From contig JAITPR010000051.1 of NCBI GenBank assembly GCA_031289315.1, forward strand, positions 6,426 to 70,425: a DNA stretch of 64,000 nucleotides, written 5' to 3'. This document shows positions 19,525-36,854 of this stretch, one piece after another (position 1 is the first letter of the stretch; every line of letters begins with the position of its first letter). The notes below the pieces were generated by a model that was not told the DNA's origin, ran no database searches, and was given only the letters and a program-made list of their open reading frames with translations. The DNA is from Clostridiaceae bacterium. Its GTDB lineage: Bacteria; Bacillota; Clostridia; Christensenellales; CAG-917. The position numbers and the translations under genes were made by a program.

Positions 19525-20514
19525 TTAAACCTCTTTACACCTTCGAGAGATGAATTTGCCGATGTAAAGCGCTATTTCGCGCGGCATTGGGTTGCTACGG
19601 TATTCGGCAAACGCCTCCGCGATAAACTCCCGCATGTTATGGGTCGCATATTCGGACAAGCCGCTTTTTATCTGCCCCTCTGTAAGACGGTTGTAATACC
19701 TCAATATTTCAGGGGCTTCCGAAAGTTCGAACATGAAGTCGAGAAGATGCCCTATCTCGTGATAAAATACCGAATCCGCCGAATTGCACCCGCGCGGCCA
19801 AAACCCACGTTCCTCGCAATCCCTAAAGGTGCTGATAAGCTTGATGTAATTGAAGTCCTTGAATTTCCCTTCGTCAAGAATTATGGCGTCAAAAAGACCG
19901 AACACGGAACGCGCGGAGGCAATCCCTACCCCGTCATGTTGGGTCAACATCTCCAAGATTAAGCTTCCGAACTCCTTCGCGACGTCTTGTGTCAATATGT
20001 AATGCAAGCCCAGTTGCTTCAACGCAGACTCGACGCCGCTGCACAATGACATTGCCATGTTTCTATATCCGAACTCCGAACCGATATAGCAAACGTTGCC
20101 GCGCAATTTAGGAAAATCAAATAAGATTTCGGCAATTACGCACAACATGTGTTTCGCCGCGTTGAGGTTTATCTCTTGAAAGTCGCAATAATCGCATAGA
20201 CCGTATCTTCTAGCAACCTTGTGCAAATCCGCAAGACTTTTTACTTCGTTTATCCGCTCCGTAAGAGTTTCGAGAGTGCAAAGACGCAAAAATGTTCTCG
20301 TACGCCTATGCATGTATAATTGGACTTGCGCGGCGCTCAACTCCAAAATAATAGAGGACGAACCGGCGCCTTGAAGCGACAAGATATACTTCGCGTCGTC
20401 CCTATCCGCCAGCTCCGAATGGCTTGTCAAAATGTCCCTGCAAGCAAACCTTGCCATGTTGCCGTTGTCGGAAACCTCGACAAACGGCTTCTTGTTGTTC
20501 TTTTGTATTGCCAT
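19525..20514 (-). CDS. Zincin-like (HExxH) metallopeptidase domain protein
   Basis: YHEIGHLLD ... LSEYATHNMREFIAEAFAEY; GGAGGAGG RBS. Confidence 0.7.
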   Translation of the reverse strand: MAIQKNNKKPFVEVSDNGNMARFACRDILTSHSELADRDDAKYILSLQGAGSSSIILELSAAQVQLYMHRRTRTFLRLCTLETLTERINEVKSLADLHKVARRYGLCDYCDFQEINLNAAKHMLCVIAEILFDFPKLRGNVCYIGSEFGYRNMAMSLCSGVESALKQLGLHYILTQDVAKEFGSLILEMLTQHDGVGIASARSVFGLFDAIILDEGKFKDFNYIKLISTFRDCEERGFWPRGCNSADSVFYHEIGHLLDFMFELSEAPEILRYYNRLTEGQIKSGLSEYATHNMREFIAEAFAEYRSNPMPREIALYIGKFISRRCKEV

Positions 20515-20551
20515 AATACTGTCCTCCTCCGTGTTAGCCTATTGGTAACCC
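20461..20551. repeat. 91-bp perfect direct repeat, copy 1 (RBS and first 18 codons of the zincin gene)
   Basis: Identical to 25537-25627 by base-by-base reading. Confidence 0.93.
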
Positions 20552-20720
20552 TATCCAGTTAACCATATATCAACCTTCGTATGGCTAACCCTATCTCGTC
20601 AACCCCAATCATGTTAACCTTGCAATGATAACCTACACTACTAAGCATTTATTGTCAACATTTTCTCGTTAGCCCTATTATGCTAACTTTGCAATGGTAA
20701 CTCTATCCTATTAACCCTTC
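20533..20720. repeat. Degenerate tandem array of about 14 GyyAAC-like units
   Basis: gttagcc, gtaacc, gttaacc, atcaacc, gctaacc, gtcaacc, gttaacc, gataacc ... spaced about 11-15 bp. Confidence 0.6.
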
Positions 20721-20864
20721 CTTGTTGAAATGATACCACATTTTACAAATAAGTCAATCCCTTGCCGTATATATTCGCGAATTGACAAAATAAATAAAAG
20801 ATGCCGCCTTGCTAGACAAACAACGCAACATCTTTTTATGTATATAAATGCGTTTTATGTGAGG

Positions 20865-22097
20865 TTATATGTCGCTTGACCATCTCACGACTTTATCATT
20901 AAGAACTGTTAAAATGGGTTCATTCCCTTTCAGCTTTTTTATCTTCTCTTTATTAAAATAATATAACACATCATAATTTAGGTCTTTTTCTTTCTCTACG
21001 AAGTTCTTTTTAAGTTCGATTATGACATAGGCATCTTTGCCGTATTGATGTATATATTTTCCTTTTTTTTCAAACTTTTTTCTTTTACTCTTCAGAAAAT
21101 AACTCTTATTTTCCGACTCATATTCAAATATTTTATTAGGAAGTTCCCTCAAGTCTTTCACTTTATTTGCCAAGTCTCTTTTTTCTACTGCCTCCAACCT
21201 TTTCCATTGATTGTCCTTATAATATTCTATTGATCCTCTCATTATCGATTCCCGATATTTTATTATCTCTTTAAGTCTATCTTCTTCTTTATCTTTAGAG
21301 AACTCCTCCGTCAAAGTATCATAACCATAATTGACTGCCATAAAAATATCTGTATCTCGACCCGTACCACCACTCTCAACGGCTTTTAAATCATTCTCCC
21401 CAGTTTTCCCGCATTTATTAATTATAATATTAATGAGTTGCCTCAAACCGTTATTTAAAGGAATATTCGCGGACTGCTCTATAGGAAGAGACGCGACGTA
21501 TATAAGTTGCCCTAACCAAGCGGACATATAAAGTCTACTTTTGGGTTTAGTTTTGTCATCATACAAATTCTTCCTGAAATTATTTAAATTGTCTATAACA
21601 AGTGTCTTCATGATAGTTGTTAAAAAAGGACAATATAGCCCTACAATAACCTCATAATTCGGTGTGTCTACTATCTTTTGTAGCACTCCGCTCGCTACCG
21701 CCGATTGATAGGACACCATAGAACCCTCAACTTCACACAAAGGGCTTTTTGCATCAATTAGCGTTTTAATCTTTACAAGCTCCCGTTTAATGGACATGAG
21801 CGTCATAGTTTTATCTTTCTTCTCTTTTAACCCATCCAAATAATTGTCGGATTGAAACGCTAGCAAAAGACCGGCCGCTATAGCAAACACTTCAATAATA
21901 ATTTCGCCTAACACATTCGTTTCATAATCAATAAATCCTTTTTCTGTTCTGCCTTTAATGCTATTATCCTCATCTTCATTGAACTGGATGTTCGCGGAAA
22001 AGAGTGTTGTTGCCATAGCAACTATTATAATTATTGCGGAAATTATTATAGTTAACAAAATCCATTTTTTAGACTTTTCTTCTGTAAAACGTTTCAT
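20865..22097 (-). CDS. AT-rich hypothetical membrane protein (two N-terminal hydrophobic segments)
   Basis: 410-aa ORF, AAGGAG RBS; WILLTIIISAIIIIVAM and IIIEVFAIAAGLLLAF helices. Confidence 0.75.
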   Translation of the reverse strand: MKRFTEEKSKKWILLTIIISAIIIIVAMATTLFSANIQFNEDEDNSIKGRTEKGFIDYETNVLGEIIIEVFAIAAGLLLAFQSDNYLDGLKEKKDKTMTLMSIKRELVKIKTLIDAKSPLCEVEGSMVSYQSAVASGVLQKIVDTPNYEVIVGLYCPFLTTIMKTLVIDNLNNFRKNLYDDKTKPKSRLYMSAWLGQLIYVASLPIEQSANIPLNNGLRQLINIIINKCGKTGENDLKAVESGGTGRDTDIFMAVNYGYDTLTEEFSKDKEEDRLKEIIKYRESIMRGSIEYYKDNQWKRLEAVEKRDLANKVKDLRELPNKIFEYESENKSYFLKSKRKKFEKKGKYIHQYGKDAYVIIELKKNFVEKEKDLNYDVLYYFNKEKIKKLKGNEPILTVLNDKVVRWSSDI

Positions 22098-22119
22098 GTG
22101 TTCTCCTTCGTAGAAAATT

Positions 22120-22755
22120 TTATTCTTCGTTTTTTTTGGGGCGGTCGCTCACTGGTTCCGCATTATATTCTAACATGCCAAGTTTTTCATATAAGTGTTT
22201 AGTATCAAAAACGCATAGTACATCAGTGGTATAATGTTTATCCTTTAGTCCGCACTCTTTTGCAAATTTTTCAACATACGCCGCCTCATTAGTAAAATTT
22301 TTAATCAAAGCACTTGCTTCTTTATAATCCGTCCACAACTTCTCAAAATCTTTGTATTCGTTAAAGTCGCGCGGTATCTTGGGCGATACTTGTCCTTCTT
22401 CCACATTTTCCACTGGCATTGCTTGTATCTCCCATGGGCAACTTTCTGTAAACCGATACTTGTATGAAGCAATTTCTTTCCAAGGCGTTTTTCTACATTC
22501 ATCACATTTTGAATTCTCAGCTTGACATTTTTTAGGTACGGTTATCATGTGCGCAACAATTTTTTCTCTAGCGATATTGATTATCATATCTACTTCTGCC
22601 TCCTGCGGATTTTTATATTTTTTAGGATCATGACAATATTTCCCTTCACTATCGATTAACCAATTATTTTCATCGTCAACCAAATAACACCAGTCTTCTC
22701 GGTCTTTTTTATTGAAAAAGAACTTGAATTGATATTTTTTATTGGAACCACTCAT
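22120..22755 (-). CDS. AT-rich hypothetical protein
   Basis: ATG 22755 overlaps the stop of the upstream NACHT gene (ATGA), AGGAGG RBS; several Cys residues. Confidence 0.72.
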   Translation of the reverse strand: MSGSNKKYQFKFFFNKKDREDWCYLVDDENNWLIDSEGKYCHDPKKYKNPQEAEVDMIINIAREKIVAHMITVPKKCQAENSKCDECRKTPWKEIASYKYRFTESCPWEIQAMPVENVEEGQVSPKIPRDFNEYKDFEKLWTDYKEASALIKNFTNEAAYVEKFAKECGLKDKHYTTDVLCVFDTKHLYEKLGMLEYNAEPVSDRPKKNEE

Positions 22756-25421
22756 CTGTTTTCCTCCTTTTCCATGCAAATACGAAATCCTATGTCGACG
22801 TTTCTTTGAAAAGCACTACTCTGTCCCTTGTACAAATTGCCTTTATCATCAACAAGTAGTTCCTTTGGTTGAAGAAAACTGCCGCCTAGACATATACGGT
22901 GTTTAATGAGTTCGACGTACGCATCTTCTAAATTATCATATTTAATATCCCAACGTTCATCGCCAATCATTTCAAAAATATTACCCGCTAAATCATAACC
23001 GTCAGTTGAACGTAGGGACACTGTTTCCAACACATGCTTATCACCGTCACTTTTAATATTAATCTTATTTAATGACAGTGCGCTATCCGTACTGTATAGA
23101 TTATCATGTAGACTAGGATAAGTTTCTTTATAGAAATTCTCCCATTCCGCAGCGTTCAACAGTCTGAATTTCCAAATCCCCTTTTCCGTAACAACTTTGT
23201 TGAGCCAATTACAATAAGCACACGCTTCAAAATAGTTAACGCCAACAATCGGAAAATTAGGGTTATTATAATCTGGATCCTTCCATTTAAGCGGACGTAC
23301 CATGCTAGAGAGAGAATACCTATCCCGTAAAATCGTTTCAATTTCACTCATGTATTGATCATCACAAAAATAGTATAGTTGTAACTTCGAAAACGAAGAT
23401 GTTTGTAGGCGTAAAACCTCTTCATATTTAGCTGACTTTAATTTCGCATGAATCATTTTCCACTTTGTTACAGCGCAGTCTGCTAACTCTTTATGAATCA
23501 TCTCCAATTTTGCTTTTATATCACTATCTTTGCGATCGCATTCATCCCCATTGGGCTTGAATTTTCTCCCGCCTATCTCTTCGTACGCATAGACAATTTC
23601 TTTCCTATAATCGCAATGATTTACAAATTTTTTATATTCGACAACAGTTACCGGACAAACTGCTATTTTAAGGTTTTCTGAAAAATCCTTAAATTGGGGA
23701 ATCAAATACTCTCTTGTTTTCTCTAATTCACGTTCTCTCAAGGTGTTTAAATGCCCTCTATCCCCTAACAATCCAAGTAATTCACCATATTCGGCACGGA
23801 CACTTTTATCCAAATCTGAACCTACATTTGTCTTCAGTTTTTTTATAAGTTCATCTTTATATTCCCCATAATCATCAATCGCAAGCATGCATCTTGCCAA
23901 TATGGCAGACTTGTCTTCTAACATCTGCTTTAAAAATGCGCGACTTCCATTGTTTTCTTTAGAGTTTTTAATGTCTGCTAAACAAGAGGCTATAAGAAAA
24001 CTGCCGGATGTGTCGGCGTTCATTTGATTAACTTGTTTGTTTCGTAATTTTTTATCGTTCGGACATATGAATGTATTAAACCGATGCCTCGCCCAAAAAA
24101 AAGCGAAGATAAATTTATCTCTAAATTCAGTATGCCCGCCGTTGCTCCTTAAAATCCCCTGTTCACAATCGATATCGCAAATATCTTTTACTTCCTTAAG
24201 AACATTTGAATTTTTAGCTGTTAGGCTATTGGTATATATTAAATGCGCTATTTTTTCTAATTGTTCCTCCTGCAATCTACTCAGTTCAAGTGCCTTTATT
24301 TTAGCTTCTATAACAATCCTCATGACTTCAAACATATTTGATGGAAATTCAATATCTCCCTCGTTTTTGGATTTAATAAATCTTTTAAGAATTTCCGTAC
24401 TGGATTTATTAAAGACATTTAAGAAGTATGGCAATCTTAAATATACCGGGATTGACTTTTCTAAGTGGTCAAGAGAAATTTGTGTTACTTTAACTTCTTC
24501 CTTTTCATGAAGACACTGCGCCACATTTTTCTCATGCATCCGATGCTTATTAATTGTGCCAATCTTAACTATGCCATAATTATTACCTGATACGATTTTC
24601 TCGCGCACACGGTCGTCACTTGTTGTGATAACAACATTTAGTGTACCATACTGTTTTTCTTTAATTTGTTTTTTAATCCACTCGTAAACTTCCATATCAG
24701 AGTGGTGAAATCCATCAAAAATATATAATCTATTAACAAAATTATTGACATCATACTCTGTTTCCGCCGAACTTGCAAGCTTGCAGATAACATCATCGAT
24801 TTCCGTATCTGTGTAATTCGATTTTTTGTTTTCGTTGACACGCAACTCATTATGAAGTCTATTGCAGTGGATATAAATCGGTATAATTTTTACCGATTTA
24901 TTTTGCCGAGTTTTTTCTAATGCCATATTAAAAATTTGGGAGATGACAGTTGAGTTTCCTATTCCATGTTCGCCGAAGAGCAGTATAATATCATTTTCTG
25001 CCTTATTCCCAAATATATATTGCCAAACCTCTTCCGCTGTTAAATTGTCGATATAAGCGGTTGACATCTGCGAATACGGTGGGCAATATCGCGCCGGCTG
25101 TAACCAAGAATTATCCGCGGATTTTGCTATAATCATGTCTGTTTTTTCACTTAAATATTTCTCCCAATCTGAACTTCTTTTATCTTTGGGAAGGTCGTAA
25201 GGGGGAGTTTCGCCAATAGGAGTTTTGGGGGAGAAATCATCGCCTAAGTTGGGGCGTTCGGGTTGTATATCCACTGGAACATTTGCTTTTATTGGAGTAA
25301 TCGTTTCCACGCCTGTATGTAGCAACGTTCCAGAATCCATTTCTTTATTCTTGATTTTCGGCTTTTTCTTTTTGTTTGCATCCAAATCTTTATTTTTCTT
25401 CCCAGCCATCTTCCTATTCAC
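22752..25421 (-). CDS. Degenerate NACHT/STAND-like NTPase fused to an FGE-sulfatase (SUMF1) domain
   Basis: LLFGEHGIGNST (Walker A K>N), LYIFDGFHH, VVITTS, EFRDKFIFAFF; FGE motifs PVTVVEYKKFV, PIVGVNYFEACAYCNWL, FRL...EWE, YDLAGNIFE, GGSF, IGFRI. Confidence 0.78.
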   Translation of the reverse strand: MNRKMAGKKNKDLDANKKKKPKIKNKEMDSGTLLHTGVETITPIKANVPVDIQPERPNLGDDFSPKTPIGETPPYDLPKDKRSSDWEKYLSEKTDMIIAKSADNSWLQPARYCPPYSQMSTAYIDNLTAEEVWQYIFGNKAENDIILLFGEHGIGNSTVISQIFNMALEKTRQNKSVKIIPIYIHCNRLHNELRVNENKKSNYTDTEIDDVICKLASSAETEYDVNNFVNRLYIFDGFHHSDMEVYEWIKKQIKEKQYGTLNVVITTSDDRVREKIVSGNNYGIVKIGTINKHRMHEKNVAQCLHEKEEVKVTQISLDHLEKSIPVYLRLPYFLNVFNKSSTEILKRFIKSKNEGDIEFPSNMFEVMRIVIEAKIKALELSRLQEEQLEKIAHLIYTNSLTAKNSNVLKEVKDICDIDCEQGILRSNGGHTEFRDKFIFAFFWARHRFNTFICPNDKKLRNKQVNQMNADTSGSFLIASCLADIKNSKENNGSRAFLKQMLEDKSAILARCMLAIDDYGEYKDELIKKLKTNVGSDLDKSVRAEYGELLGLLGDRGHLNTLRERELEKTREYLIPQFKDFSENLKIAVCPVTVVEYKKFVNHCDYRKEIVYAYEEIGGRKFKPNGDECDRKDSDIKAKLEMIHKELADCAVTKWKMIHAKLKSAKYEEVLRLQTSSFSKLQLYYFCDDQYMSEIETILRDRYSLSSMVRPLKWKDPDYNNPNFPIVGVNYFEACAYCNWLNKVVTEKGIWKFRLLNAAEWENFYKETYPSLHDNLYSTDSALSLNKINIKSDGDKHVLETVSLRSTDGYDLAGNIFEMIGDERWDIKYDNLEDAYVELIKHRICLGGSFLQPKELLVDDKGNLYKGQSSAFQRNVDIGFRICMEKEENR

Positions 25422-25533
25422 TCCTCAATCTTGTTTTTCTTATGCTTATTTTTCTAACATCGTATAACCCGCACCCGACTTTTGCCGGGCGCCGTTGTTA
25501 GCTGTTTTGCAAGCTTCCGGTGAGAAGCCACCA

Positions 25534-25590
25534 TTAGCCGTTGTCGGAAACCTCGACAAACGGCTTCTTGTTGTTCTTTTGTATTGCCAT
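25534..25590 (-). pseudogene. Truncated duplicate of the zincin 5' end (MAIQKNNKKPFVEVSDNG*)
   Basis: Repeat copy 2 carries the RBS and 18 codons, followed immediately by TAA. Confidence 0.75.
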
Positions 25591-25627
25591 AATACTGTCC
25601 TCCTCCGTGTTAGCCTATTGGTAACCC
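25537..25627. repeat. 91-bp perfect direct repeat, copy 2
   Basis: Identical to 20461-20551. Confidence 0.93.
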
Positions 25628-25709
25628 CTCGCCACCTTACGGCGCGTTTAGACGCCGTTGCTATAAAACCCTATACCCATCGGTGCTGTGCATTTAGGCG
25701 TGCCTTTGG

Positions 25710-28700
25710 TTAGTCGTTTATAAGTTCCTCGTATGCCGATTCGAATTCGTCCAGTTCTTTCTTGAATTGGTTCACCGTATCGCTCTCGTCAAGCCGCTGT
25801 TTATAATACTCACGGAATTCCCTCATCCGTGCGGCATTATAACCGCTGTTGTCTATGACGGACGACGTTTTCGAGTAGTTAGTCGCAAGCGCCTCAATAA
25901 GTTTTTCCACGTATTTCCCGTCGCTTTTAAATGCGTCAATCAAGGCTCTTCCGCATTCGTCAATTGCGTTGCCGTCTTCCGCTAGCTTAAACACCGCGGA
26001 AAGCTCACCCAACTTATAAGTAGCCGAAAACGGCTTCTTGAAAAGTTTGTCGTAAGTTTTATCTTCAAGTATAGGTAAAGCCATAAACCCTGTAACGGCG
26101 CTCTCAAATGCGACTTTTGCGGTATCCCGTTCTTTCTTCGCGCCTTTAATATCTGAAAAGACTTCAACGGCTTTTGCGAACTCGGCTTCCGCTTTATTCG
26201 GTTCTTTCTTAGCGCCTTTAATATCTGAAAAGACCTCAATGGCTTTCTCGAATGCGGCTTTCGCTTTATTCGGTTCATTTTCCGCGCCGGAGATCTTCCC
26301 CGCGTTCGGTTCTTTCTTCGCGCCTTTAATATCTGAAAAGACTTCAACGGCTTTCTCAAATGCGGCTTTCGCGGCATTCCGCTCTTCCTCTGCGCCGGGG
26401 AGGTCTGTTTTTGCCGCATTCAGCGCTTTGTGCGCGGCTTTTAGCTCGTTTAACTCGGTTTTACACGTTTCAAGCGTCTGGGTTAGATTGGCTTCAAACG
26501 CTTCTGTTTTTTGCGGCAGACTTAGTTGAACGAATTTCTTTTTTCCCACGCCTATGGGCTTAGGGCTTGAACCGCTCTTTTCGCCGCCCCATATAGTTTC
26601 AATGTCCGCTACTTCCGTTTCGTTCGCTTTTTGTATATCGAATATTTTTTTCAACGCCGCGTCGCCCGCTAAGGAAGCGTCCAGTATCCTTTGGTTGATA
26701 CCTTTAACTTTCCCTTCACTGTCGACATATTTTTGCGTGGTACTCTCCAAAGCTTCGACGGCATTCCGCAAGGCGATATATTTTTGCGCGGTATCTTTCA
26801 AGGCTTCAAAGGGCTTTTGCTGTTTTTTGTCCGCAAATTCTATTTTGTCCTTTAAAATATCCTTCTCCACTTTTTCCGCGTTGCTAAGGATATACGCCTT
26901 GATGTCTTGCGCCGCGTTTTCCTTTTTTTGTTTTATGCGCCCGTCGAAAGCGCCCTTTTGGTTTTTGACGACGCCGTCTATAACGCCCTTAATACCGTCC
27001 GTAAAGGCGAAGTCATATTGCTTCGGCTTATCAGGGCTTTCGGGCTTATCATACGTATTCGCATAGACCTCCACAAACTTACTTGCAACCGTCTCTATTT
27101 TGGTGAGCGTCCTCTCGCGGACATATTTGTCGAACTCTTCTTTCGGCTTGCCGAATATTTCCAACCCGTTTATATTTTCACGGTATTTTTTGTCCTTTTT
27201 CAGAACCTCCGTTCTTCTTTTCGCGAACTTTGACACCATATCCTTGTAGTCTTTAAACCCTAAAGCGACAAACGCCACGGTTGTGTCGTCCGCCTTTATC
27301 TTGTCAAAATGCTCTTCTAGGCTGTTTTTCAGCTTTTCTATCGACGCGCCGTCCGTATCCGATTGGCTGTTTTTTATCGTTTCTAGCATGACGGCTTCGA
27401 CGCCCAAATTGTCGTGCGGCTCGTAAGGGTCAAATACCCCGTCGCTTACCGCCATTAAAATAATCGGCGTATCGAAAGTAAACCGCTTATGATTTAATTT
27501 CGTATTGATAATCTTTTCATTCGGCTGTTGAACGTAGAACAAATTAGTTATGGCTTTTGACGAGTCCTCGTCGTCTTTGGATAGCAGCTTCATTCCGTCC
27601 GGCTTCAACACGTAGCAACGTGAATCCCCCGCCCATACGACGTCGCAAGTTACCTTTTTGCCGTCGCTCTTGTTCTTAACCGCCGTGTCACCGTCTATTT
27701 TTTTGTCGTCGAAAATGTCGTCGTCGCCCACCTTATACTTAATCGCCGCAAGCGTTGTCGGCAATAACAGGTAGGACTGCGGTGTTTTCAGTTTGTATTG
27801 TGACGCGGTTTTGTCCAACCCTTTGCGTATGAATTTTACCAACTCTTTCCGCGTTGTCGCATCCGTTAAGTCATCGAATTTAGCGCTTTCTTCCCGCAGT
27901 GCAAATATAAACCGCGATATAACGACGCGCGATGCCCAAAGTGCGGAAGTATCTTCTTTATCATCCACCATGGGTGCCAGCCATTTTTCAAGGTAGTCGG
28001 CAAAATCCGGGTCGCTGTGTTTCTTTTTGTTGTATTCGTCAAGCACATATTTAATGAGTTCTTCCTGCGACAATTTTCTTTTGTCTTCAAAGTTTAATGG
28101 ATGCACGTATGACCCGGAACCGCCTAAACCGTCCGCAACCACAAGCAATCCGCCGTCCTCGTCGCTGTATAGGAACGGATCTGCGTCCTCGTTTTTGAGT
28201 ACCGAATAAAATTTAAACGCTAAATCTGCCTCTTTTTTAGGCGGTTTTTTATCCGATTGAAGCGGTTTTGGCGGTGTGTGTCGCACCGGTGATTTTTTTA
28301 CGCTTTCCGCTCCCGTAGGCGCTTTTTCGGTTTGCTCGGTTTCGGACGCTCCCGTTTTAGGCGCTTTCACCGCAATTTCCACCGCGTTGGTATCGGAGGC
28401 ACCGCTATCTACGTCCGCCGGTTTAGATTTGGCTTTGGTTTCTTTTGAGGCAGTCTTTTTTTCGGTCGATTTTGTTTCGGTCGTTTCCTTTTCGGTCGGT
28501 TCTGCTTTGGGTTTGTCAGGCGCTTTTTCCGTAGTCGCTTTAACGGGCAGTTCATTCCCTCCGTCCAACTTTCTTACTCCGTTGCTCCACTCCTCGTACT
28601 CACCATCATAAAAACTCCCACGCCGCTTCGCCGTGTTTGCCGGCGGATTCGCATCGCCGGTTGCCGTAGCTTGTACAACCTCCGGTTTAGATTGCGGCGA

Positions 28701-29510
28701 ATTATCCGTGTTTTGTATGTCAATAAACGGCTTTTCCGCACTGTTTATTTTAGGGTTCTTATTAGTTTTTGCGCTCCCCACCCCAGTGGTTTTTGGAAGT
28801 GTAGGCTTTGACGTATCTTCCCGCTTTTCTGTAAAGTGCGCCAAACCTTCGTTTACTAACCATTTGTAATCTTTAGTTAATCCTACCCCGTCTGCCCTAA
28901 TAATAAAGTACTTTTGAGCAGACGATATCCTGATCTGTTTTATTTCGACATACCCGTTTTTGAGTATTTTGTCGAGGGGCTCAAATTCAATCGGGTGTTC
29001 TGCCCATGGTAGGCATTTTATTTTCTTTTCTTCCGGTGCATTTCTCTCCTCGGCATAATGTGCTAATCCGCAAGCCCTAAGCTCTTCACAATCCATAGTA
29101 TCAAAAGTGCCGTCCGTTTCTTTGATGAGCTTATACTTGAAAACGCCGTTTGCCTCCGTCCTTTTTATCGCGACATATCCTTTTGCCGCTATCACTTCGG
29201 AAGACTCAAATTCAATCTGATCCCCTTTCCACGGTGAGTCGATTTCCATAGGCTTGCGATTTACATAGCCTTCGTCGATGAGTTTTTTGATGGAAACATA
29301 CTTTTTTTCTTTTTTGTCGTCGCCAACCATTGCTAATTCATAATCAAATTTGTCTCCGCGTTGCACCGGCCAAAGCTTGTCCACTTTCATTGCCATCAAT
29401 TCCAACGGGGTGAGCCGAGTAAAATAAGGTTCATGAACTTTATGAAGCTCACGGATATTTTTATTAAGGTCGCCGTCCGCCGGCGTAACGTCGTTATTTT
29501 TCGTGTCCAT
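25710..29510 (-). CDS. Large PP2C-like phosphatase: three N-terminal ~60-aa repeats, disordered linker, PP2C core, coiled-coil repeats
   Basis: LVVADGLGGSG, PTTLAA, WAGDSRCY, VSDGVFD, DDTTVAFVALG; TAATG coupling with the kinase stop; repeats like KAAFEKAVEVFSDIKGAKKE. Confidence 0.85.
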   Translation of the reverse strand: MDTKNNDVTPADGDLNKNIRELHKVHEPYFTRLTPLELMAMKVDKLWPVQRGDKFDYELAMVGDDKKEKKYVSIKKLIDEGYVNRKPMEIDSPWKGDQIEFESSEVIAAKGYVAIKRTEANGVFKYKLIKETDGTFDTMDCEELRACGLAHYAEERNAPEEKKIKCLPWAEHPIEFEPLDKILKNGYVEIKQIRISSAQKYFIIRADGVGLTKDYKWLVNEGLAHFTEKREDTSKPTLPKTTGVGSAKTNKNPKINSAEKPFIDIQNTDNSPQSKPEVVQATATGDANPPANTAKRRGSFYDGEYEEWSNGVRKLDGGNELPVKATTEKAPDKPKAEPTEKETTETKSTEKKTASKETKAKSKPADVDSGASDTNAVEIAVKAPKTGASETEQTEKAPTGAESVKKSPVRHTPPKPLQSDKKPPKKEADLAFKFYSVLKNEDADPFLYSDEDGGLLVVADGLGGSGSYVHPLNFEDKRKLSQEELIKYVLDEYNKKKHSDPDFADYLEKWLAPMVDDKEDTSALWASRVVISRFIFALREESAKFDDLTDATTRKELVKFIRKGLDKTASQYKLKTPQSYLLLPTTLAAIKYKVGDDDIFDDKKIDGDTAVKNKSDGKKVTCDVVWAGDSRCYVLKPDGMKLLSKDDEDSSKAITNLFYVQQPNEKIINTKLNHKRFTFDTPIILMAVSDGVFDPYEPHDNLGVEAVMLETIKNSQSDTDGASIEKLKNSLEEHFDKIKADDTTVAFVALGFKDYKDMVSKFAKRRTEVLKKDKKYRENINGLEIFGKPKEEFDKYVRERTLTKIETVASKFVEVYANTYDKPESPDKPKQYDFAFTDGIKGVIDGVVKNQKGAFDGRIKQKKENAAQDIKAYILSNAEKVEKDILKDKIEFADKKQQKPFEALKDTAQKYIALRNAVEALESTTQKYVDSEGKVKGINQRILDASLAGDAALKKIFDIQKANETEVADIETIWGGEKSGSSPKPIGVGKKKFVQLSLPQKTEAFEANLTQTLETCKTELNELKAAHKALNAAKTDLPGAEEERNAAKAAFEKAVEVFSDIKGAKKEPNAGKISGAENEPNKAKAAFEKAIEVFSDIKGAKKEPNKAEAEFAKAVEVFSDIKGAKKERDTAKVAFESAVTGFMALPILEDKTYDKLFKKPFSATYKLGELSAVFKLAEDGNAIDECGRALIDAFKSDGKYVEKLIEALATNYSKTSSVIDNSGYNAARMREFREYYKQRLDESDTVNQFKKELDEFESAYEELIND

Positions 29511-31084
29511 TATTTGATGTACCTCAAAATTTTCATATTGTTTACTTTTATTGCGTCGTTTACGTGTCCGTCCGTAAAGGTTATTCTATAGCGGTGTTCG
29601 CCGTCATACTCCACTCGCGCAATGCTCTTCACCTTGCGCTCCGTTAGGTAGGCGGAGTCGGCATACGCGGTACCGTGTTCCGGCCAAGGCGTGTCTACGT
29701 CCATTTTAAAGCTTTTGGGATGTGCCAAGCCCTCTTCTATCAACCACCTGTAGCCTTTGTCGAAGCTACGCCCGCCTATCTGGGTGATAGTATAGCGCCT
29801 TCCGTAGAGGGCATCTAAGCGGTCTATCGCGATATAACCCGCTTCGGTTATCGTTTCAAGGGGCTCAAATTCAATCAGGTGTTCTTCCCACGGTTCACAC
29901 ATTTTGGCATTCTCGCGCTTTGCGTAGCCTTCGCGGCATATTTCGTCAATGGATAGCCTAACTTCCTTATCACCGACCAGAACCAAATATTTCAAATAGC
30001 CGCCGTCGTTGATACGTTTGAACATCCTGACGCCTTTCTTCTTAAGGGTTTCAACGGTATAAAGGTGGGCGACCAGCTTATGGTCACCCCACAGCTCCGT
30101 ATCGAACGGTTTCACGTCGCTGCCCTTGTGGAAAGCCGCCGGCACGCTTAAAGTATCGGATAAAACATCTATGACGTTTCCCGCTGTGGGGCGATCCGCC
30201 GGGTCTTTGGCAAGCATCCAGTTAATCAGGGACATAAGCGTCGCGCCGCATTTATCGCCGATTATGCAGTCGAACTTCTTGTCGATAAAAATGTTTCCGT
30301 CGCTGTAAACCGCTTCGCCGATTGAAGCGTCGCCTATGTCGGTCGCGGGGAACATTCTATGCCCCGCACCGTCCTTTGTCCACAAGAGATGGAAAATAAG
30401 ACCCAATGAAAAGATGTCCGTCGCTATCGTAACCGTTTCCGGTGCCGACGCACCCTCTTCGCTTGTGTATAGCGCAATCTCCGGGCTTTCGTAGCCGGGC
30501 GACCCTCCTATGCTGCTTTCATATTTGGCAATGCTCTTAGCCGGATACGACGAGTCAAAATCTATGATGTACGGGACGTATTTCCCGCTCTCGTCGGCAA
30601 TGAGGATGTTGCTCTCCTTTAAGTCGCCGTGGATAATGCCGCGCTCATGAAGGAGCTTTATAGGTTCCACCATGTCACAGCAAAGCTTTATAAAGGATTT
30701 CCTATCAAGCGTTGAAAAGTCGAAGTCCTTGTCCACTTTGTTGTCTATGTACAAGGTAACCGTGACGAACTGACACGATATGGGGGCGGTGTCCCAAAAG
30801 TTGTATTCCTCCACCACAACGCGGTCCTTTCTTGAGTCCAACCCCTTCATCAAAACTTTTAGCTCTTTTTGTTTGCTGTTCACGCGTTCCTGCGTGGCTA
30901 ACTTGATTTTACGCACGGTGTCGCTGTCGCCCTTGGACGGACAACGTGCGTGCATATCTCTCTTGATAAAGTATTTTTCGCCGCCCTTGCGCGCGATAAC
31001 GGTTTCACCGTTTCCGGTGTTCACCCATTTTATTATTTCGCCGTCTATAAAGGCGCTATCAACTTCATAACCCCAGTAGTCCAT
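29510..31084 (-). CDS. Hanks-type Ser/Thr protein kinase with three C-terminal repeats
   Basis: YFIKR, IIHGDLKESNILI, IIDFD, GSPGYESPE, DIFSLG, MLAKDPADRPT. Confidence 0.9.
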   Translation of the reverse strand: MDYWGYEVDSAFIDGEIIKWVNTGNGETVIARKGGEKYFIKRDMHARCPSKGDSDTVRKIKLATQERVNSKQKELKVLMKGLDSRKDRVVVEEYNFWDTAPISCQFVTVTLYIDNKVDKDFDFSTLDRKSFIKLCCDMVEPIKLLHERGIIHGDLKESNILIADESGKYVPYIIDFDSSYPAKSIAKYESSIGGSPGYESPEIALYTSEEGASAPETVTIATDIFSLGLIFHLLWTKDGAGHRMFPATDIGDASIGEAVYSDGNIFIDKKFDCIIGDKCGATLMSLINWMLAKDPADRPTAGNVIDVLSDTLSVPAAFHKGSDVKPFDTELWGDHKLVAHLYTVETLKKKGVRMFKRINDGGYLKYLVLVGDKEVRLSIDEICREGYAKRENAKMCEPWEEHLIEFEPLETITEAGYIAIDRLDALYGRRYTITQIGGRSFDKGYRWLIEEGLAHPKSFKMDVDTPWPEHGTAYADSAYLTERKVKSIARVEYDGEHRYRITFTDGHVNDAIKVNNMKILRYIK

Positions 31085-31142
31085 TTTCTATCACACTCCA
31101 CTAATTATAGTTTATTTTTTATGTTGCGCTTGTTTTGCTACG

Positions 31143-31868
31143 TTACGAGTTCGAACTTGCCGAAGCCGCCAAAATTTTGATTATGCCTTCGAAGTCAATC
31201 TCGGCAAGTCCCTTGCTTATTGCCACAGGTTCAAACACGCTCCGGTTAAGCTTAGCTTTCCACTTTTCATACCTTGTGCCGGACGGTGCAAAGATGACAA
31301 GCCGCTTGTTTTTCTCACGCAGCTTAACGGCGGGGTCTTGACTTTTACAGAACCACGCGTCTTCGAACGCCACATCGTCCACCATGCCTTCAGGGTATCC
31401 CTGACAGCCCGCCCGTTTCAGTAGCGGAAGCGTGTCCGTATCCGCAAACAATACTATAACCTGCCTATCGTGAGGTCCCATCACAAAATCGGATTTCATG
31501 GCTAGATATAACGCTTCCAGTCCGTTTGCGTCCTGTCCGACGCCGCCCGCCGCCCTTATCTCGGACAAGCGTTTTTCAAAATCGGCGGTGTCGTCGGGCA
31601 ACTCATACCAGCTATCGTCAACCTCCATTGCGTCGACGGATTTCTTAATAGCTTCATTTCCCGGTTTATAGTCGCGGAAGACGATAGTTTTTACGCGCAG
31701 CGCGTCGATGTCATCTCCCTTTTCAGTCATTTCCTTGACAAAATCCTCATAGAAATGCTTGATGTTGGTCTTGACATTTTCTATGCACGGAGCCATACTA
31801 CGTGTACCGTCCATACAAAACACTATGTCAATCTTTCTCTTTTTTTTAAGTCGATTTTCGTTAGGCAC
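31143..31868 (-). CDS. vWA domain protein
   Basis: IDIVFCMDGTRSM (MIDAS), VFRDY, GGVGQDANGLEAL, VLFAD; GTG start with GGAGG; ends AASASSNS. Confidence 0.88.
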   Translation of the reverse strand: MPNENRLKKKRKIDIVFCMDGTRSMAPCIENVKTNIKHFYEDFVKEMTEKGDDIDALRVKTIVFRDYKPGNEAIKKSVDAMEVDDSWYELPDDTADFEKRLSEIRAAGGVGQDANGLEALYLAMKSDFVMGPHDRQVIVLFADTDTLPLLKRAGCQGYPEGMVDDVAFEDAWFCKSQDPAVKLREKNKRLVIFAPSGTRYEKWKAKLNRSVFEPVAISKGLAEIDFEGIIKILAASASSNS

Positions 31869-32117
31869 AGACTTGAACCCTCCTTTTGCCTTAACGCGGC
31901 AATACCGCGTCTATTTTAGCATTGCGCACCGCACCGTAGCACGACAAAAATCTAGCAGTATTAACCACACCTATAACCGTCGCGCAACGGTGTTGTCCCG
32001 GGTTAACACCCGTGATTTCGCAACCTTATAATAAATTAGCTAGGTTTTCACCTCCTACCAAATCGGGGCAATTTTACATTGAATCCGAACTAATCAACCG
32101 TCGTCACGTATTAGTCG

Positions 32118-33593
32118 TCACACATCTTCTTCCAATATTTGTAAAACACTATAAAAGTCTATGTCACCCAAGCCGTTTCCCATTTCAACAGGTTCAAACA
32201 CGCTTCTGTCGAGTTTGGCTCTTAAATTTTCATACTTCGTGCCGGAGGGGGCAAAGAGGACGAGGCGCTTGTTTCTCCCACGAAGATGGCTTTCGGGGTC
32301 TTGATTGTTACCCATCCATGTGTCTATAAGACCTTTCTCACCAACCATATCCACTGGATACGCACCCGCTCCCTTTCTTTCACCCAACTCCAAATAATCG
32401 GCGTTAGTAAACAAAACGATAATTTGCCTATCAGTTTTGGACACTCCCATGAAATCAGATTTCATGGCAAAATACAGCGCTTCAAGTCCGTTTTCCGGAG
32501 CGTCTCCGCCGCCGTGCGCCGTAACACCGGTCAAGTAGTTGGCAAAGTCGCTGTCGTCGTCGGGCAACTCAAACCACTGGCTGATTTTCATTGCCTCGTC
32601 GCCGTCGAACCCGTAGTCTCTAAAGACGATAATCTTTACGCGCAAACTATCGATATCGTAGCGGCGTTGCTCAAGCTCCTCGCAGTACTCAATACGAAAA
32701 CGTTTTATGTTGTTCTTTACGCTCTCAATGTGAGGCGCCATGTCTCCTGTACCGTCGATACAGAACACCATATCAACTGCGCTCTTTTTTTTGCTGATGT
32801 CTTTCTTTACGCTCTCAATGTGAGGCGCCGTGTCTCCTGGACCTTCGTGCACCACGTCGTCAATGCTTTCTTCTATCAGCCTTCTTCTATCTTCGGGCGC
32901 CGCCACGGCGGGACACATTATTTTTATAATATCGTCGAAGTTGATATCTCCCAAGCCTTTTCCCATTGCCACCGGCTCAAACACGCTCCTGTTAAGGTTG
33001 GCTTTTAAATTTTCATACTTCGTGCCAGAGGGGGCAAAGAGGACGAGGCGCTTGTTTCTCTCACGAAGCTTGCTATCTAGGTCTTGACTTCTACAAAGCC
33101 ACATATCCTGTAAGCCTTCTCCGTTAACCATGTCTTCCGGATACGAACCCTTTCCCTTCCTTTCACCCAACTCTAGACAATCGGCATTGGTGAACAGCAC
33201 GATAACCTGTCTGTCGTTGCGTCCGGTCATGAAATCTTGCTTCATGGCAAAATACAGCGCTTCAAGTCCGTTTTCCGGAGCGTCTCCGCCGCCGTGCGCT
33301 TCGATGTCTCTTAAATAGTTACTCAATTCTTCATCATCTTCGGGCAAATCAAACCAATTGCTGATTTTCATTGCCTCGTCACCGTCGCACCCATAGTCTC
33401 TAAAGACGATAATCTTTACGCGCATTGAATCTATGTAGCTGTATTGTTTGGTCATTTCCTCTGCAAAATCAAGGTAAAACCGTTTCACGTTGTTCTTTAC
33501 GCTCTCAATGTGAGGAGCCATGTCTCCTGTACCGTCGATACAGAACACCATATCAATTTTGCTATGTATCACTAATATATTGTCATAATTCAT
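32118..33593 (-). CDS. Tandem double-vWA protein with altered MIDAS
   Basis: Two copies of DMVFCIDGTGDM...FRDY...GGGDAPENGLEAL...LFTNAD. Confidence 0.88.
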   Translation of the reverse strand: MNYDNILVIHSKIDMVFCIDGTGDMAPHIESVKNNVKRFYLDFAEEMTKQYSYIDSMRVKIIVFRDYGCDGDEAMKISNWFDLPEDDEELSNYLRDIEAHGGGDAPENGLEALYFAMKQDFMTGRNDRQVIVLFTNADCLELGERKGKGSYPEDMVNGEGLQDMWLCRSQDLDSKLRERNKRLVLFAPSGTKYENLKANLNRSVFEPVAMGKGLGDINFDDIIKIMCPAVAAPEDRRRLIEESIDDVVHEGPGDTAPHIESVKKDISKKKSAVDMVFCIDGTGDMAPHIESVKNNIKRFRIEYCEELEQRRYDIDSLRVKIIVFRDYGFDGDEAMKISQWFELPDDDSDFANYLTGVTAHGGGDAPENGLEALYFAMKSDFMGVSKTDRQIIVLFTNADYLELGERKGAGAYPVDMVGEKGLIDTWMGNNQDPESHLRGRNKRLVLFAPSGTKYENLRAKLDRSVFEPVEMGNGLGDIDFYSVLQILEEDV

Positions 33594-33884
33594 AACTTTC
33601 TCCTTGTAGAAAATCCCCCGCGCTTATTAGTAGGCGTTTAAAAACGCACCACTGCCGTACTTTTTTTAAAATCCTATTACGTAAAATCCGCACCGCATCT
33701 ATCGCGCGTAGAATGTCCCGCCAAAACACGGTCACCTCGCTTGCTTATAAATCCGGTACGGATTGTGTAATTATTGGGGGTGCGTTGACACTGCGGCAGG
33801 TTTGATAAGCTGCGGGCGTGTCCAACATACCCTAGCTTATTTCACGTTTTTTTGTTGCGTTTTTTGCTGAGTCCTTTTGTCACG

Positions 33885-34586
33885 TTATGAGTTTGAGCTT
33901 GCCGACGCCGCTATTATTTTTATAATACCGTCGAAGTTGATATCTCTCAAGCCTTTTTCCATTGCTACCGGCTCAAACACGCTCCTGTTAAGGTTGGCTT
34001 TTAAATTTTCATACTTCGTGCCGGAGGGGGCAAAGAGGACGAGGCGCTTGTTTCTGTCACGAAGCTTGCTATCGGGGTCTTGACTTCTACAAAACCACAT
34101 ATCCTGTAAGCCTTCTCCGTTAACCATGTCTTCCGGATACGAACCCTTTCCCTTCCTTTCACCCAACTCCAAGTAATCGGTATCGGTGAACAGCACGATA
34201 ACCTGTCTGTCGTTGCTTCCGGTTAAGAAATCTTGTTTTATCGCAAAATACAGCGCCTCCAGTCCGTTTTCCGGAGCGTCCCCGCCGCCGTTAGCCGTAA
34301 CACCGGTCAAGTAGTTGGCAAATTCGCTGTCGTCGACGGGCAACTCAAACCAGTTGCTGATTTGCATGGAATCGTCGCCGTCGAACCCGTAATCTCTGAA
34401 TACGATAACCTTTACGCGCATTGAATCTATGTCGCTGTTTTGTCTGGTCATTTCCTCTGAAAAATCAAGGTAAAACCGTTTCGCGTTGTTCTTAACGCTC
34501 TCTATACAAGGAGCCATGCTCCCCGTTCCGTCGATACAAAACACCACATCGATGTTTCTCTTCTTTTTTAAAACATTGCCAGCCAT
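33885..34586 (-). CDS. vWA domain protein
   Basis: IDVVFCIDGTGSM, GGGDAPENGLEAL, LFTDTD; ATG 34586 with AGGAGG; ends AASASSNS. Confidence 0.88.
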   Translation of the reverse strand: MAGNVLKKKRNIDVVFCIDGTGSMAPCIESVKNNAKRFYLDFSEEMTRQNSDIDSMRVKVIVFRDYGFDGDDSMQISNWFELPVDDSEFANYLTGVTANGGGDAPENGLEALYFAIKQDFLTGSNDRQVIVLFTDTDYLELGERKGKGSYPEDMVNGEGLQDMWFCRSQDPDSKLRDRNKRLVLFAPSGTKYENLKANLNRSVFEPVAMEKGLRDINFDGIIKIIAASASSNS

Positions 34587-34669
34587 AATTGAATTCCTCC
34601 TGAAAATTCTCTTTTTGTTAGTTCTTTTGCTTTTGTGCGCGGATACAAGCCGCACAACTACGTTGTTTA

Positions 34670-35485
34670 TTACTCATTCGTAGGCTTCGCCGTTATAACC
34701 GGCTCTTCGCTTTCGAAGCTTTCTGTCGCAAGCCCCAACGAAATCTGCTCTTCCGCTTGCAAGCTTTCGTCCGTGGGTATTTTGTATTTCTCTTGGTTGC
34801 CTATTTGATTTTCTCCAACCGAATTGTCCGGTTCGGTACATGCGGCGGCAAACTCTGTTTTCCCCGATTTTTCTAAAACCGCCGCTTCGTCTTCCGACAT
34901 TTTCGCGATGATTTCAAGCGGAACTCTCACATAAACTTTTTCACCCATAAACTCCAACTCCAACCGCGCCTCGCGGTTGTGGCGATTGACTTTTTTTATA
35001 AGGCTTTCGTGACCCTTGAGCGCCCCGTCTATTATGATAATCTTATCGCCGACTACATAACCTATTGACCTCCCTAACTGCTTACTATCCTTGAATAACA
35101 GCTCTAGAATCTTTTTTTCTTCTTGCACTACGGCACTTTTTTGCGAATCGCCGTACTTCAAAATACGTATCATGTTGCTTGAACTGCGAATAAATTCCGC
35201 GGTTTCTATCGCGAACTTATCCTCCGGCATTGTGGTTTCTATGAACACATAGCCCGGCATCATCGGCACGTACTTATAAGAACTTTCCGACCGCCCGGAC
35301 TCCTTGTTCTTCCTGCGGAAAAACTTTTCTTCATGCGGCACAAACGGTGTAATCTCATGGTGTATGCCGTCGGTTTTTTCACATCGCTTTTTGACGTGCT
35401 CAAAAAACTTATCAAGAGCTTCCACCACCGGCAACTCTTGCCCAGCCACTATGAACATGACATAAAGATAACACCCTTCTTTCAT
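34670..35485 (-). CDS. loaP: LoaP-like NusG paralog (transcription antiterminator)
   Basis: NGN motif MMPGYVFIET, IRILKY; KOW segment SIGYVVGDKIIIIDGALKGHESLIKKVNRHNREARLELEFMG; start ATG 35485 or GTG 35569. Confidence 0.8.
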   Translation of the reverse strand: MKEGCYLYVMFIVAGQELPVVEALDKFFEHVKKRCEKTDGIHHEITPFVPHEEKFFRRKNKESGRSESSYKYVPMMPGYVFIETTMPEDKFAIETAEFIRSSSNMIRILKYGDSQKSAVVQEEKKILELLFKDSKQLGRSIGYVVGDKIIIIDGALKGHESLIKKVNRHNREARLELEFMGEKVYVRVPLEIIAKMSEDEAAVLEKSGKTEFAAACTEPDNSVGENQIGNQEKYKIPTDESLQAEEQISLGLATESFESEEPVITAKPTNE

Positions 35486-35612
35486 TTTTTTCTCAACTGA
35501 CAAATGACAAAATTTTCCCTTGTCACCCGCTTCGTAATTTCCGCGCGCTACGGCAAATTCTACGTCCACCGCCGCACCTACCGAGACCCATACCTACGAG
35601 CAAATGCAAACG

Positions 35613-35746
35613 GCTTCACAGACTGATTTCTTCAGCCCCCTCACAAGGCGGAGCGACCTATTCTTTCGAATAAACAAAATCCGCTTCACAGACTGATTTC
35701 TTCGCCCCCTCACAGGGCGGAGCGACCTATTCTTTCGAATAAACAA
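35613..35746 (-). ncRNA. Tandemly duplicated structured 5' leader (two ~65-nt units)
   Basis: Copies 35613-35677 and 35683-35746; each reads UAUUC-GAAA-GAAUA, GGUCGCUC, CGCCyU-GUGA-GGGGGC on the minus strand. Confidence 0.65.
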
Positions 35747-35761
35747 TCTGACTTCTTATAT

Positions 35762-35790
35762 ATAATAACACAACTCATTTAGGATTGCAA
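35762..35790 (-). promoter_or_regulatory. sigmaA-like promoter heading the accessory locus
   Basis: Minus strand TTGCAA-17 bp-TATTAT with TG extension. Confidence 0.65.
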
Positions 35791-36023
35791 TACCTTATTC
35801 GACAAAATCTTTATGCAATTGCGAATTTTTTCCCGTTTCAACATTTGTATGACGCACATATTTATTTTGCGCTGAATTCTAAGTGCATTTTGTCACTGTT
35901 TTCATGTTTTTTCTGTTTTAACATACGTATTGCACGCATGTTTTTTTATCCGGCGGTTATACAACGCCTTTTTTCCTTTTGCGCACTTCTTATTCGATAG
36001 CCGCCTATAATCCTGATGAAAAT

Positions 36024-36050
36024 AAAAAAGCACCTCGTTTTAAGGTGCTT
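36024..36050 (-). terminator. Intrinsic terminator downstream of luxS
   Basis: Minus strand AAGCACCT-loop-AGGTGCTTTTTT. Confidence 0.7.
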
Positions 36051-36072
36051 CCATATTGAAAAAAGCGGTGCT

Positions 36073-36198
36073 GACGTTAATTCCGCCAACGGAGTTAATT
36101 TCAAGACCGGGTTCGATTTTCATGCCGGAGTTGATTGCGGTACCGACATTAATTCCGTAAACAGCGTTGATTGAGAAGGCGGAGCTAATTTCAGGTCG
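36073..36198. repeat. Degenerate 18-bp tandem repeat, seven units
   Basis: GTTAATT-like cores at 36076, 36094, 36112, 36130, 36148, 36166, 36184. Confidence 0.65.
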
Positions 36199-36207
36199 AA
36201 GTCCGTT

Positions 36208-36636: not shown

Positions 36637-36854
36637 GGTATATCCTTAACTGGTATCCGTACGAACGGATACGCACGTGTTTTGGGTTTTAAGACGTTTG
36701 ATATGCGGCTAATATGCGTACGGACTTGTGCGGCTCCGTATTACGCCCTGCGCCGTTTATGGGTAGCAAAATACTACTAATACGAGGCAGTCTGTTTCCG
36801 TATTGTGCGGCTCCGTACCGCCGTAGCTTGGGCTACAACACTTCCACGGCTTGG

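Follow-up and report, generated by a model that had tools for sequence, protein, structure and literature searches.

The leader region described here precedes a gene for a LoaP-like NusG paralog in a 64,000-nucleotide (nt) stretch of DNA, hereafter called the window, from a Clostridiaceae bacterium (GenBank assembly GCA_031289315.1, contig JAITPR010000051.1). Two near-identical tandem units occupy the beginning of this leader (unit 1, 35678..35746, 69 nt; unit 2, 35608..35677, 70 nt), and the last 11 nt of unit 2 also form the start of a divergent structured RNA (35505..35618) that appears to belong to a family of leader RNAs found near related genes. We lean modestly toward the interpretation that the units are a young, lineage-specific tandem duplication, and that the conserved cis-element is the adjoining RNA at 35618-35505 rather than the units themselves. 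All of these features lie on the minus strand, and coordinates written from high to low follow the predicted direction of transcription.

Just upstream of unit 1 is a promoter-like site (35762..35790) that matches the consensus of a sigma-70-like promoter, with TTGCAA, a 17-nt spacer, TATTAT, and a TG extension before the -10 hexamer. Between the terminator that a scan assigned to the upstream luxS gene (36052-36026) and the LoaP-like gene, the minus strand has no other promoter of this kind except a weaker one at 35905-35876. The LoaP-like gene itself (34670..35485) codes for 271 amino acids (aa) when read from ATG 35485, and its open reading frame (ORF) extends up to GTG 35569 as well. The ATG is the favored start codon because the N-terminus of the family (WYV..) aligns directly after it and because GTG 35569 falls within a helix of the leader RNA (P1, described below). 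In the database, the protein is entered in its 299-aa form, P0001.

Tandem Repeats Finder (TRF) reports the duplication as 35613-35746, with a period of 69, 1.9 copies, 96% matches, and a score of 254. When the two units are aligned, 66 of 70 columns are identical, and the differences occupy columns 32 (C/U), 44 (gap/U), 66 (G/C), and 68 (A/U). The C/U change lies within the second stem, the extra U of unit 2 directly follows GGGGGC, and the remaining two differences are near the 3' end. A 26-mer taken from the unit occurs twice in the window and was absent from 100 shuffled versions. A sequence-only reading of this DNA had proposed two near-identical tandem units immediately after a promoter, which agrees with these results, and had given their length as 64-65 nt, which is too short.

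Sequencing reads also bear on the arrangement. Among the contigs of run X1, which derives from termite-gut DNA, a 31-mer common to both units has a depth of 65 whereas the flanks have 27-32, and the junction between unit 1 and unit 2 lies within a 98-nt contig of depth 34.6. This run may be the source sample of the assembly, and its reads therefore rule out mis-assembly without constituting independent evidence that the arrangement occurs. Contigs of run X2 cover 34600-34747 and 35742-35991, with none in between and none joining across. The two-copy tandem duplication is real. The genome as a whole is rich in tandem repeats, with 313 TRF rows of period at least 30. Other arrays include one at C56 63436-64220 (period 104, 7.6 copies, 96% identity) and another at C62 8875-9257 (period 74, 5.2 copies, 97% identity).

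Each unit had been described as carrying two GNRA hairpins, and this holds in part. Hairpin 1 (35741-35728 in unit 1, and the same at 35672-35659 in unit 2) does have the form UAUUC-GAAA-GAAUA with a GAAA loop. However, its five A-U-rich pairs are marginal: a 16-nt piece one base short of the fifth pair folds at -0.8 kcal/mol, and 22 of 200 shuffles match the energy of the hairpin. Hairpin 2 of unit 1 (35719-35703) forms its six pairs only with the 5-nt loop GUGAG and is not closed by a GNRA tetraloop. It had also been argued that the second stem is kept in both copies, and the C-to-U change does preserve pairing with G. The argument overlooked the 1-nt insertion in unit 2 (GGGGGC-U-GAAG), and hairpin 2 of that unit (35650-35633) is absent from its minimum-energy fold because the insertion and the C-to-U change together weaken it. 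Unit 1 as a whole is predicted to form three small hairpins at -22.4 kcal/mol (z -2.15; 7 of 200 shuffles equal or better), whereas unit 2 folds at -15.0 kcal/mol (z +0.49; 127 of 200). The G-U pairs of the units are present solely on the transcribed-sense strand, as read from the sequence.

Searches for relatives of the units were uniformly negative. A scan of positions 34000-37000 against Rfam 15 at permissive thresholds, the first check suggested for the proposed element, yielded no credible family; the best match was Bp1_684, at 16.2 bits against a threshold of 44 (E 2.5). In the 2.18-Mb genome there is no further copy of the unit, and no part of it recurs: the 17-mer of hairpin 2 has five matches with up to three mismatches, a 20-mer from the unit tail has four with up to four mismatches, and TATTC-N4-GAATA has six, with the units accounting for two in every case. 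An exact 24-mer of the unit found no match in the species-genome collection, and a blastn search with the leader found nothing in the plasmid and phage collections. The same search of 107 genomes from the same family returned just 27-37-nt matches, which fall at the luxS terminator end of the query. A protein-guided search of loci in genome contigs and viral contigs gave pattern matches and no relative. Likewise, a covariance model of both units (R1) detected nothing in 79 loci with LoaP relatives or the family box described below, its best E being 0.076 over a coding start. The units are unique within all of the collections searched.

The protein encoded downstream gives a more informative entry point. 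Pfam recognizes an NGN domain in it (NusG model, E 7.4e-8), together with a KOW match that is weak and falls under the threshold. Of six families compared, the best was NCBIfam antiterm_LoaP (NF033641), at 112.9 bits against a cut-off of 125; the nusG, UpxY, and RfaH models gave 41.7, 29.5, and 23.5 bits, respectively. The antiterm_LoaP model gives housekeeping NusG proteins from other genomes scores of up to about 90-103 bits. The best solved relative is 8f5g_A (E 5e-13). These results favor the earlier assignment of the gene to the LoaP type, and sequence comparison indicates that the protein is a divergent outlier of the LoaP-type NusG paralogs. A word-indexed search of 5.8 billion proteins recovered only its own cluster and one 33% match, an exhaustive search found 755 proteins at E <=1e-3 whose best non-self matches are 40-47% identical, and no homolog at E 1e-5 was present in the genomes of 60 relatives. 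Compared with its nearest relatives, the protein has its NGN domain enlarged by an insertion (about residues 25-45 and 55-70) and carries an acidic C-terminal tail of ~75 residues that is absent from all 28 relatives aligned.

LoaP loci were gathered from 400 genomes of the same class, 57 of which have a protein above the family cut-off. A profile built from the nearest relatives of the window protein scores that protein at 208 bits and matches 19 of 399 genomes at E 1e-40, a count that takes in the genome of the window. Among 26 distinct proteins of this subfamily (profile score at least 140 bits), 16 are preceded by leaders that carry a near-invariant box with the consensus GUGAAAGGGCGAAGCUAUG, which starts 32-79 nt before the start codon. 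The box is absent before all 27 of the more distant LoaP or NusG-like proteins in the loci examined. On a scoring matrix for the box, these 16 relatives reach 15-33 bits, values that are partly circular because the matrix was built from 14 of them; the alignment is not affected by this. A scan of metagenomes with a degenerate box produced 101 loci, 51 of which have a NusG-like ORF within the at most 1.2 kb available on each side, many loci being shorter.

The region 5' of the box is what reveals a structured RNA. Alignment A4 comprises 25 leaders, 10 obtained through protein homology and 15 through the box scan, in which the box is fixed by design. In this alignment the upstream region forms three helices, P1, P2, and P3, and 88.8% of cells pair, compared with 28.6-48.6% when the partners are slid by 1-3 columns. 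Changes on both sides are seen for 15 of 24 pairs, and none of 500 shuffles reaches the observed values. The shuffle control is inflated by relatedness among the sequences, a problem from which the slid control is free. The helices were derived by hand, since RNAalifold applied to raw MAFFT alignments gave long-range pairing or almost nothing. The resulting leader RNA is ~115 nt long and ends in the invariant box GYGAAAGGGCGAAGCUAUG. Loci that carry it in A2 and A4 include L020, L023, L031, L033, L034, L036, L037, L039, L040, L041, L045, L048, L052, and L055, among others. Thus, the predicted conservation of an RNA upstream of loaP homologs was borne out in that a conserved, covarying RNA exists, but it lies beside the units and not in them.

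In several loci this RNA is located 3' of the loaP-like gene and before the next gene (L038 895-1003, minus strand; L075, L082, L089, L096, L106, and L108), and it therefore marks the leader of the target operon and not loaP as such. Of the 25 family leaders, 17 have a -10-like hexamer 4-22 nt ahead of the conserved start, a pattern too loose to fix start sites. The search of Rfam 15 at permissive thresholds assigned no family to the leader RNA in 15 related loci. A literature search for the box and for LoaP leader elements retrieved no description of a clostridial leader, although key LoaP studies fell outside that search and a prior description is possible. On balance, we consider it probable that this leader RNA class is real and uncatalogued.

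Two further observations concern the box. Columns 34-36 of A4, at the 3' end of the P2 hairpin-A loop and the adjoining stem base (CAC/CGC), can be matched with columns 109-111 at the box start (GUG/GCG); this three-pair CAC/GUG helix shows joint changes in 8 of 25 sequences at one pair. The covariation could reflect a pseudoknot or just a subfamily signal. Moreover, in several GC-rich metagenome contigs (L061, L062, L086-L088, L099, L112, and L123), CUGUAAG followed by the same box is found where weakly NusG-like ORFs begin or shortly ahead of that point; these ORFs have WYAVHTR N-termini (20-50 bits on the profile). Because these loci were chosen by the box itself, only the association with the ORFs is informative. 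From sequence, the box seems common to distant NusG-paralog lineages.

A covariance model of the family RNA (R2; 114 positions, 24 pairs) was run over the whole 64 kb, on both strands and with filters off. It matched 35505..35618 over model positions 1-114, at 25.6 bits and an approximate E of 1e-5; the next-best match in the window scored 11.4 bits (E 0.19). Members left out of model building score 24-77 bits (L070 76.9, L031 55.5, L056 51.1, L020 33.8, and L048 24.4), and in metagenome members ~20 bits of the R2 score come from the box. The window match lacks the box, so its score comes from the upstream helices. P1 (35614-35610 with 35572-35568) has 5 of 5 pairs and P2 (35607-35597 with 35583-35574, loop 35596-35584) has 10 of 10, and these 15 pairs are formed by letters that differ from the consensus. 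The P2 loop retains UCGU.GG..UGGGUC.CG, a GUAGC word (35551-35547) is kept from the family, and P3 (35547-35543 with 35530-35526) has 4 of 5 pairs. The equivalent of the invariant box (35526-35507) is degenerate; it starts 41 nt before ATG 35485, which fits the range of the relatives, and the RNA as a whole ends 19 nt before that codon. With P1 and P2 enforced, the fold has an energy of -34.4 kcal/mol. By these comparisons, we judge 35618-35505 to be homologous to the family leader RNA. Hence a cis-acting RNA for the LoaP-like factor, as the sequence-only reading had envisioned, does have a candidate in this leader, but the units to which that role was assigned score poorly on the family model and have no relatives.

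Specifically, the two units (35746-35608) score 1.9 bits on R2 (E 0.33) in a search confined to 152 nt and are not matched at E <=10 in the whole-window search. On an nhmmer profile of the box they obtain 0.9 bits (E 66) and rank about 27th in the window. A three-block matrix gives them 11.5 bits, a value attained at 451 of 4.35 million genome positions, whereas members have 38-61 bits. Unit 1 contains a box-like word, GUGAGGGGGCGAAG (35713-35694), that scores 8.0 bits on the box matrix, a score reached in 8 of 1500 random 153-nt genome windows. When unit 1 is aligned with the 83 nt that follow the units, the semi-global score is 44 versus 33.2 +/- 4.6 for shuffles (21 of 1000 as good), whereas the local alignment is ordinary (458 of 1000 as good). 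The idea that the units are shortened leader copies that supply a lost box therefore has weak support, below a reliable level.

The 5' strand of P1 contains two of the four positions at which the units differ (columns 66 and 68). The letters of unit 2 form all five pairs, and by reading, those of unit 1 would break two of the five. This is consistent with constraint on only the copy that abuts the conserved RNA, a pattern that rests on two substitutions. The core of ops and opsX elements, GCG..AGC, is not present in either unit, where unit 1 has GCGAAGA and unit 2 has GCUGAAGA. Within the conserved RNA, GCCGTAGC (35554-35547) is one mismatch from the ops core. Likeness to this core was rejected as evidence, as the genome contains 3016 one-mismatch and 154 exact words. 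Four GTAG words within 62 nt are rare (18 such clusters in 4.36 million strand positions), but this cluster is explained by the location of the words inside the conserved RNA.

Downstream of the LoaP-like gene is a co-directional block of genes (19525..34655, minus strand). Pfam and NCBIfam matches identify a von Willebrand factor A (vWA) protein (33885-34655), a protein with two vWA domains (32118-33593), another vWA protein (31143-31868), a Ser/Thr kinase (29510-31084) that is the sole PADLOC match among 10 proteins, a 1266-aa protein with a weak PP2C match (25710-29510), and a protein with NACHT and FGE-sulfatase domains (22752-25421). The block includes three further ORFs. The words ADGLGG and SDG in the 1266-aa protein are what we take to be PP2C motifs. 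The last ORF (19525-20514) carries a HEIGH (HExxH) metalloprotease-like word and matches a Pfam lethal-factor-type protease domain below the threshold (E 0.0096; 16.1 bits, with a cut-off of 27.4). Strand and spacing suggest that the downstream genes form one operon, 16 kb long and headed by the LoaP-like gene. The block looks acquired because its GC content is 43.3% versus 48.5% for the genome. Between the stop codon of the LoaP-like gene and the first vWA gene is a G+C-rich hairpin without a U tract (34633-34657) whose energy of -10.8 kcal/mol is unremarkable (37 of 200 shuffles equal or better). The LoaP family is usually linked to polysaccharide or polyketide clusters, unlike the vWA, kinase, PP2C, and NACHT block found here.

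How these pieces might operate together can be outlined as follows. The probable transcription start is a few bases past the -10 box (35767-35762), and the transcript would run through unit 1, unit 2, and the ~114-nt structured RNA before reaching the start of the LoaP-like gene. By analogy with B. velezensis LoaP (described below), the strongest candidate for the place at which the LoaP-like factor engages RNA polymerase, to carry it through the 16-kb operon, is the RNA at 35618-35505. The duplicated block would have copied a 58-nt lineage-specific 5' segment together with the first 11 nt of the conserved RNA, and only the copy abutting the RNA would keep the bases that pair in P1. Most simply, the units are a recent slippage duplication of this segment. 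Most likely they lack a conserved function or play no more than an accessory part, for example by extending the 5' end or adding a small hairpin.

Several points weigh against this view. Both the start of transcription and the co-transcription of the units are predictions made from sequence, and LoaP binding and antitermination at 35618-35505 are proposed by analogy. Lack of function of the units is not demonstrable from one sequence. Left unconstrained, 35618-35505 reaches its lowest free energy as a different long hairpin (-36.8 kcal/mol), and the invariant box G.GAA..GGCG.AGC..T is not preserved, the homologous position GUGACAAGGGAAAAUUUUGU scoring 1.7 bits. A better box-like word is present in unit 1, so the units could supply the function of the box. 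Filters also matter for R2: with default settings it found nothing in the whole genome and missed even the match in the window, and its E-values are rough due to a shortened calibration. Similarly, nhmmer profiles of the family leader recovered neither the units nor 35618-35505, which only R2 with filters off detected. Finally, a simple scan of the operon strand lists only weak terminator-like sites, with no strong intrinsic terminator inside the operon, and the genome encodes Rho (549.9 bits, above the cut-off).

The most serious competing explanation assigns the function to the units themselves. Each unit might be a loading or pause module for the LoaP-like factor, acting through its RNA hairpins or a non-template ops-like word, present twice and possibly replacing the lost box. 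The higher score of GUGAGGGGGCGAAG in unit 1 relative to the box position of the conserved RNA, the semi-global alignment that hints at shortened leader copies, the restriction of G-U pairs to the transcribed-sense strand, and the better-than-shuffled fold of unit 1 all speak for it. Against these stand the near-absence of signal from the units on R2, on the box profile (for which ~26 places in the window are better), and on the three-block matrix, as well as the ordinary local alignment. Furthermore, the inserted nucleotide of unit 2 interrupts the word and destabilizes hairpin 2, neither the C of the GCG..AGC core nor the TG that closes the family box is present in the word, and the loops GAAA and GUGAG are not of the UNCG type. 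L056 also departs from the box (5.5 bits on the matrix), having a GGGGAAAAG-type box with no such units, and a degenerate box thus need not be compensated. We regard loading by the units as unlikely. A broader version, in which the leader RNA is an undescribed and widespread class and the units are shortened, duplicating modules (a hairpin and an ops-like word) that now supply the lost loading word, strikes us as slightly more doubtful.

Rather than acting as RNA, the units could serve as a DNA operator, in which TATTC-N4-GAATA, repeated 69 bp apart, binds a dimeric regulator that blocks or tunes transcription of the island. The perfect 5+5 inverted repeat does occur twice, about +15 and +84 from the predicted start, and hairpin 1 is too weak to be persuasive as RNA. 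However, Pfam reveals no regulator gene beside the site or in the island, the six sites in the genome, two of them here, make no regulon visible, and the spacing of 69 bp is simply the duplication period, which leaves this explanation decidedly improbable. It is far less probable still that the units encode a leader peptide. A 50-codon frame (ORF 35594..35746, 50 aa) does run from TTG 35746 to TAG 35594 through both units, and the period of 69 nt, equal to 23 codons, keeps it in frame. Yet no convincing ribosome-binding site precedes the TTG start, the extra nucleotide of unit 2 changes the frame such that the peptides of the two copies differ beyond 13 residues, a period divisible by three has a one-in-three chance of arising anyway, and no homolog of the peptide is known. 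An assembly artefact is barely conceivable: short repeats can be mis-assembled and the X1 contigs break at the repeat, but the raised depth of the shared 31-mer and the contig that spans a junction existing only in the tandem arrangement contradict it.

Whichever role the units have, the leader RNA with its ops-like box provides a concrete and testable recruitment candidate for the clostridial LoaP subfamily and for other lineages that bear the box. The locus also presents a LoaP-like factor attached to a signaling or defense-like island. If the units do prove to be duplicating loading modules, they would constitute a recruitment site made of modules, which expands through tandem duplication and drives an island of vWA, kinase, PP2C, and NACHT genes in place of a biosynthetic cluster. 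To our knowledge, the way in which a LoaP-type factor locates its operon has been established in just one Bacillus system, which uses a UNCG hairpin. The locus also offers a caution: the neat hairpin pair beside a regulator gene proved distinct from the conserved element, which was located 1-110 nt farther downstream.

Among known gene arrangements, the downstream genes recall what we take to be the "triad" operons of vWA (TerY-like) proteins, PP2C phosphatases, and Ser/Thr kinases. We know of no triad operon headed by a NusG paralog, no systematic search having been made. As in triad operons, several vWA proteins, a protein kinase, and a PP2C-like protein are encoded downstream here; unlike in those operons, a protein with NACHT and FGE-sulfatase domains follows.

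The family box invites comparison with the sites of other NusG paralogs. In the accessible portion of one account, the ops core recognized by RfaH is given as 5'-GCGGTAGC (PMC11685472). The family box resembles ops, as represented there, in being a short invariant leader word of the type that halts polymerase and loads a NusG paralog, and it ends in UG. RfaH differs in being encoded apart from its targets and in reading DNA and not a folded RNA. Those same portions of the account describe UpxY of Bacteroides fragilis as the product of the first gene of its capsule operon, and opsX as an element of ~40 nt that consists of an upstream hairpin and a GCG-N-AGC box, with the class-1 start codon about 41 nt downstream (PMC11685472). 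Like opsX as described there, the family box GGGCGAAGCUAUG contains GCG-A-AGC, follows a hairpin (P3), and starts 32-79 nt before the start codon. It departs from that description in the window, where the box is degenerate and the word in the units is GCGAAGA and not GCGAAGC. The organisms also belong to another phylum and the proteins to another paralog family, and upstream the family RNA includes a further two helices with covariation (P1 and P2).

A close parallel is LoaP of Bacillus velezensis, which, according to the available portion of the published account, binds a leader RNA hairpin and then suppresses NusA-stimulated termination (PMC12691694). In that portion the dfn and mln operons have as their site a single small hairpin, closed by a UNCG-type tetraloop, with an intrinsic terminator after it (PMC12691694). 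Relative to the site so described, the loops of the units are GAAA and GUGAG, the family RNA is a multi-helix structure of ~115 nt, and the units do lie in a leader, but from 35746 to the start codon the scan shows nothing that resembles a terminator. The window protein further differs from B. velezensis LoaP in its association with a signaling or defense-like operon and not a polyketide operon, in its score of 112.9 against the 125-bit cut-off, and in its NGN insertion and long tail. As far as the available account extends, there are also similarities. In both cases a LoaP-type NusG paralog is encoded beside a long target operon, and 8f5g_A is the closest solved protein to the one described here. 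Moreover, just as the B. velezensis system requires an RNA element in the 5' leader, the family leader recognized here is an RNA with covarying helices.

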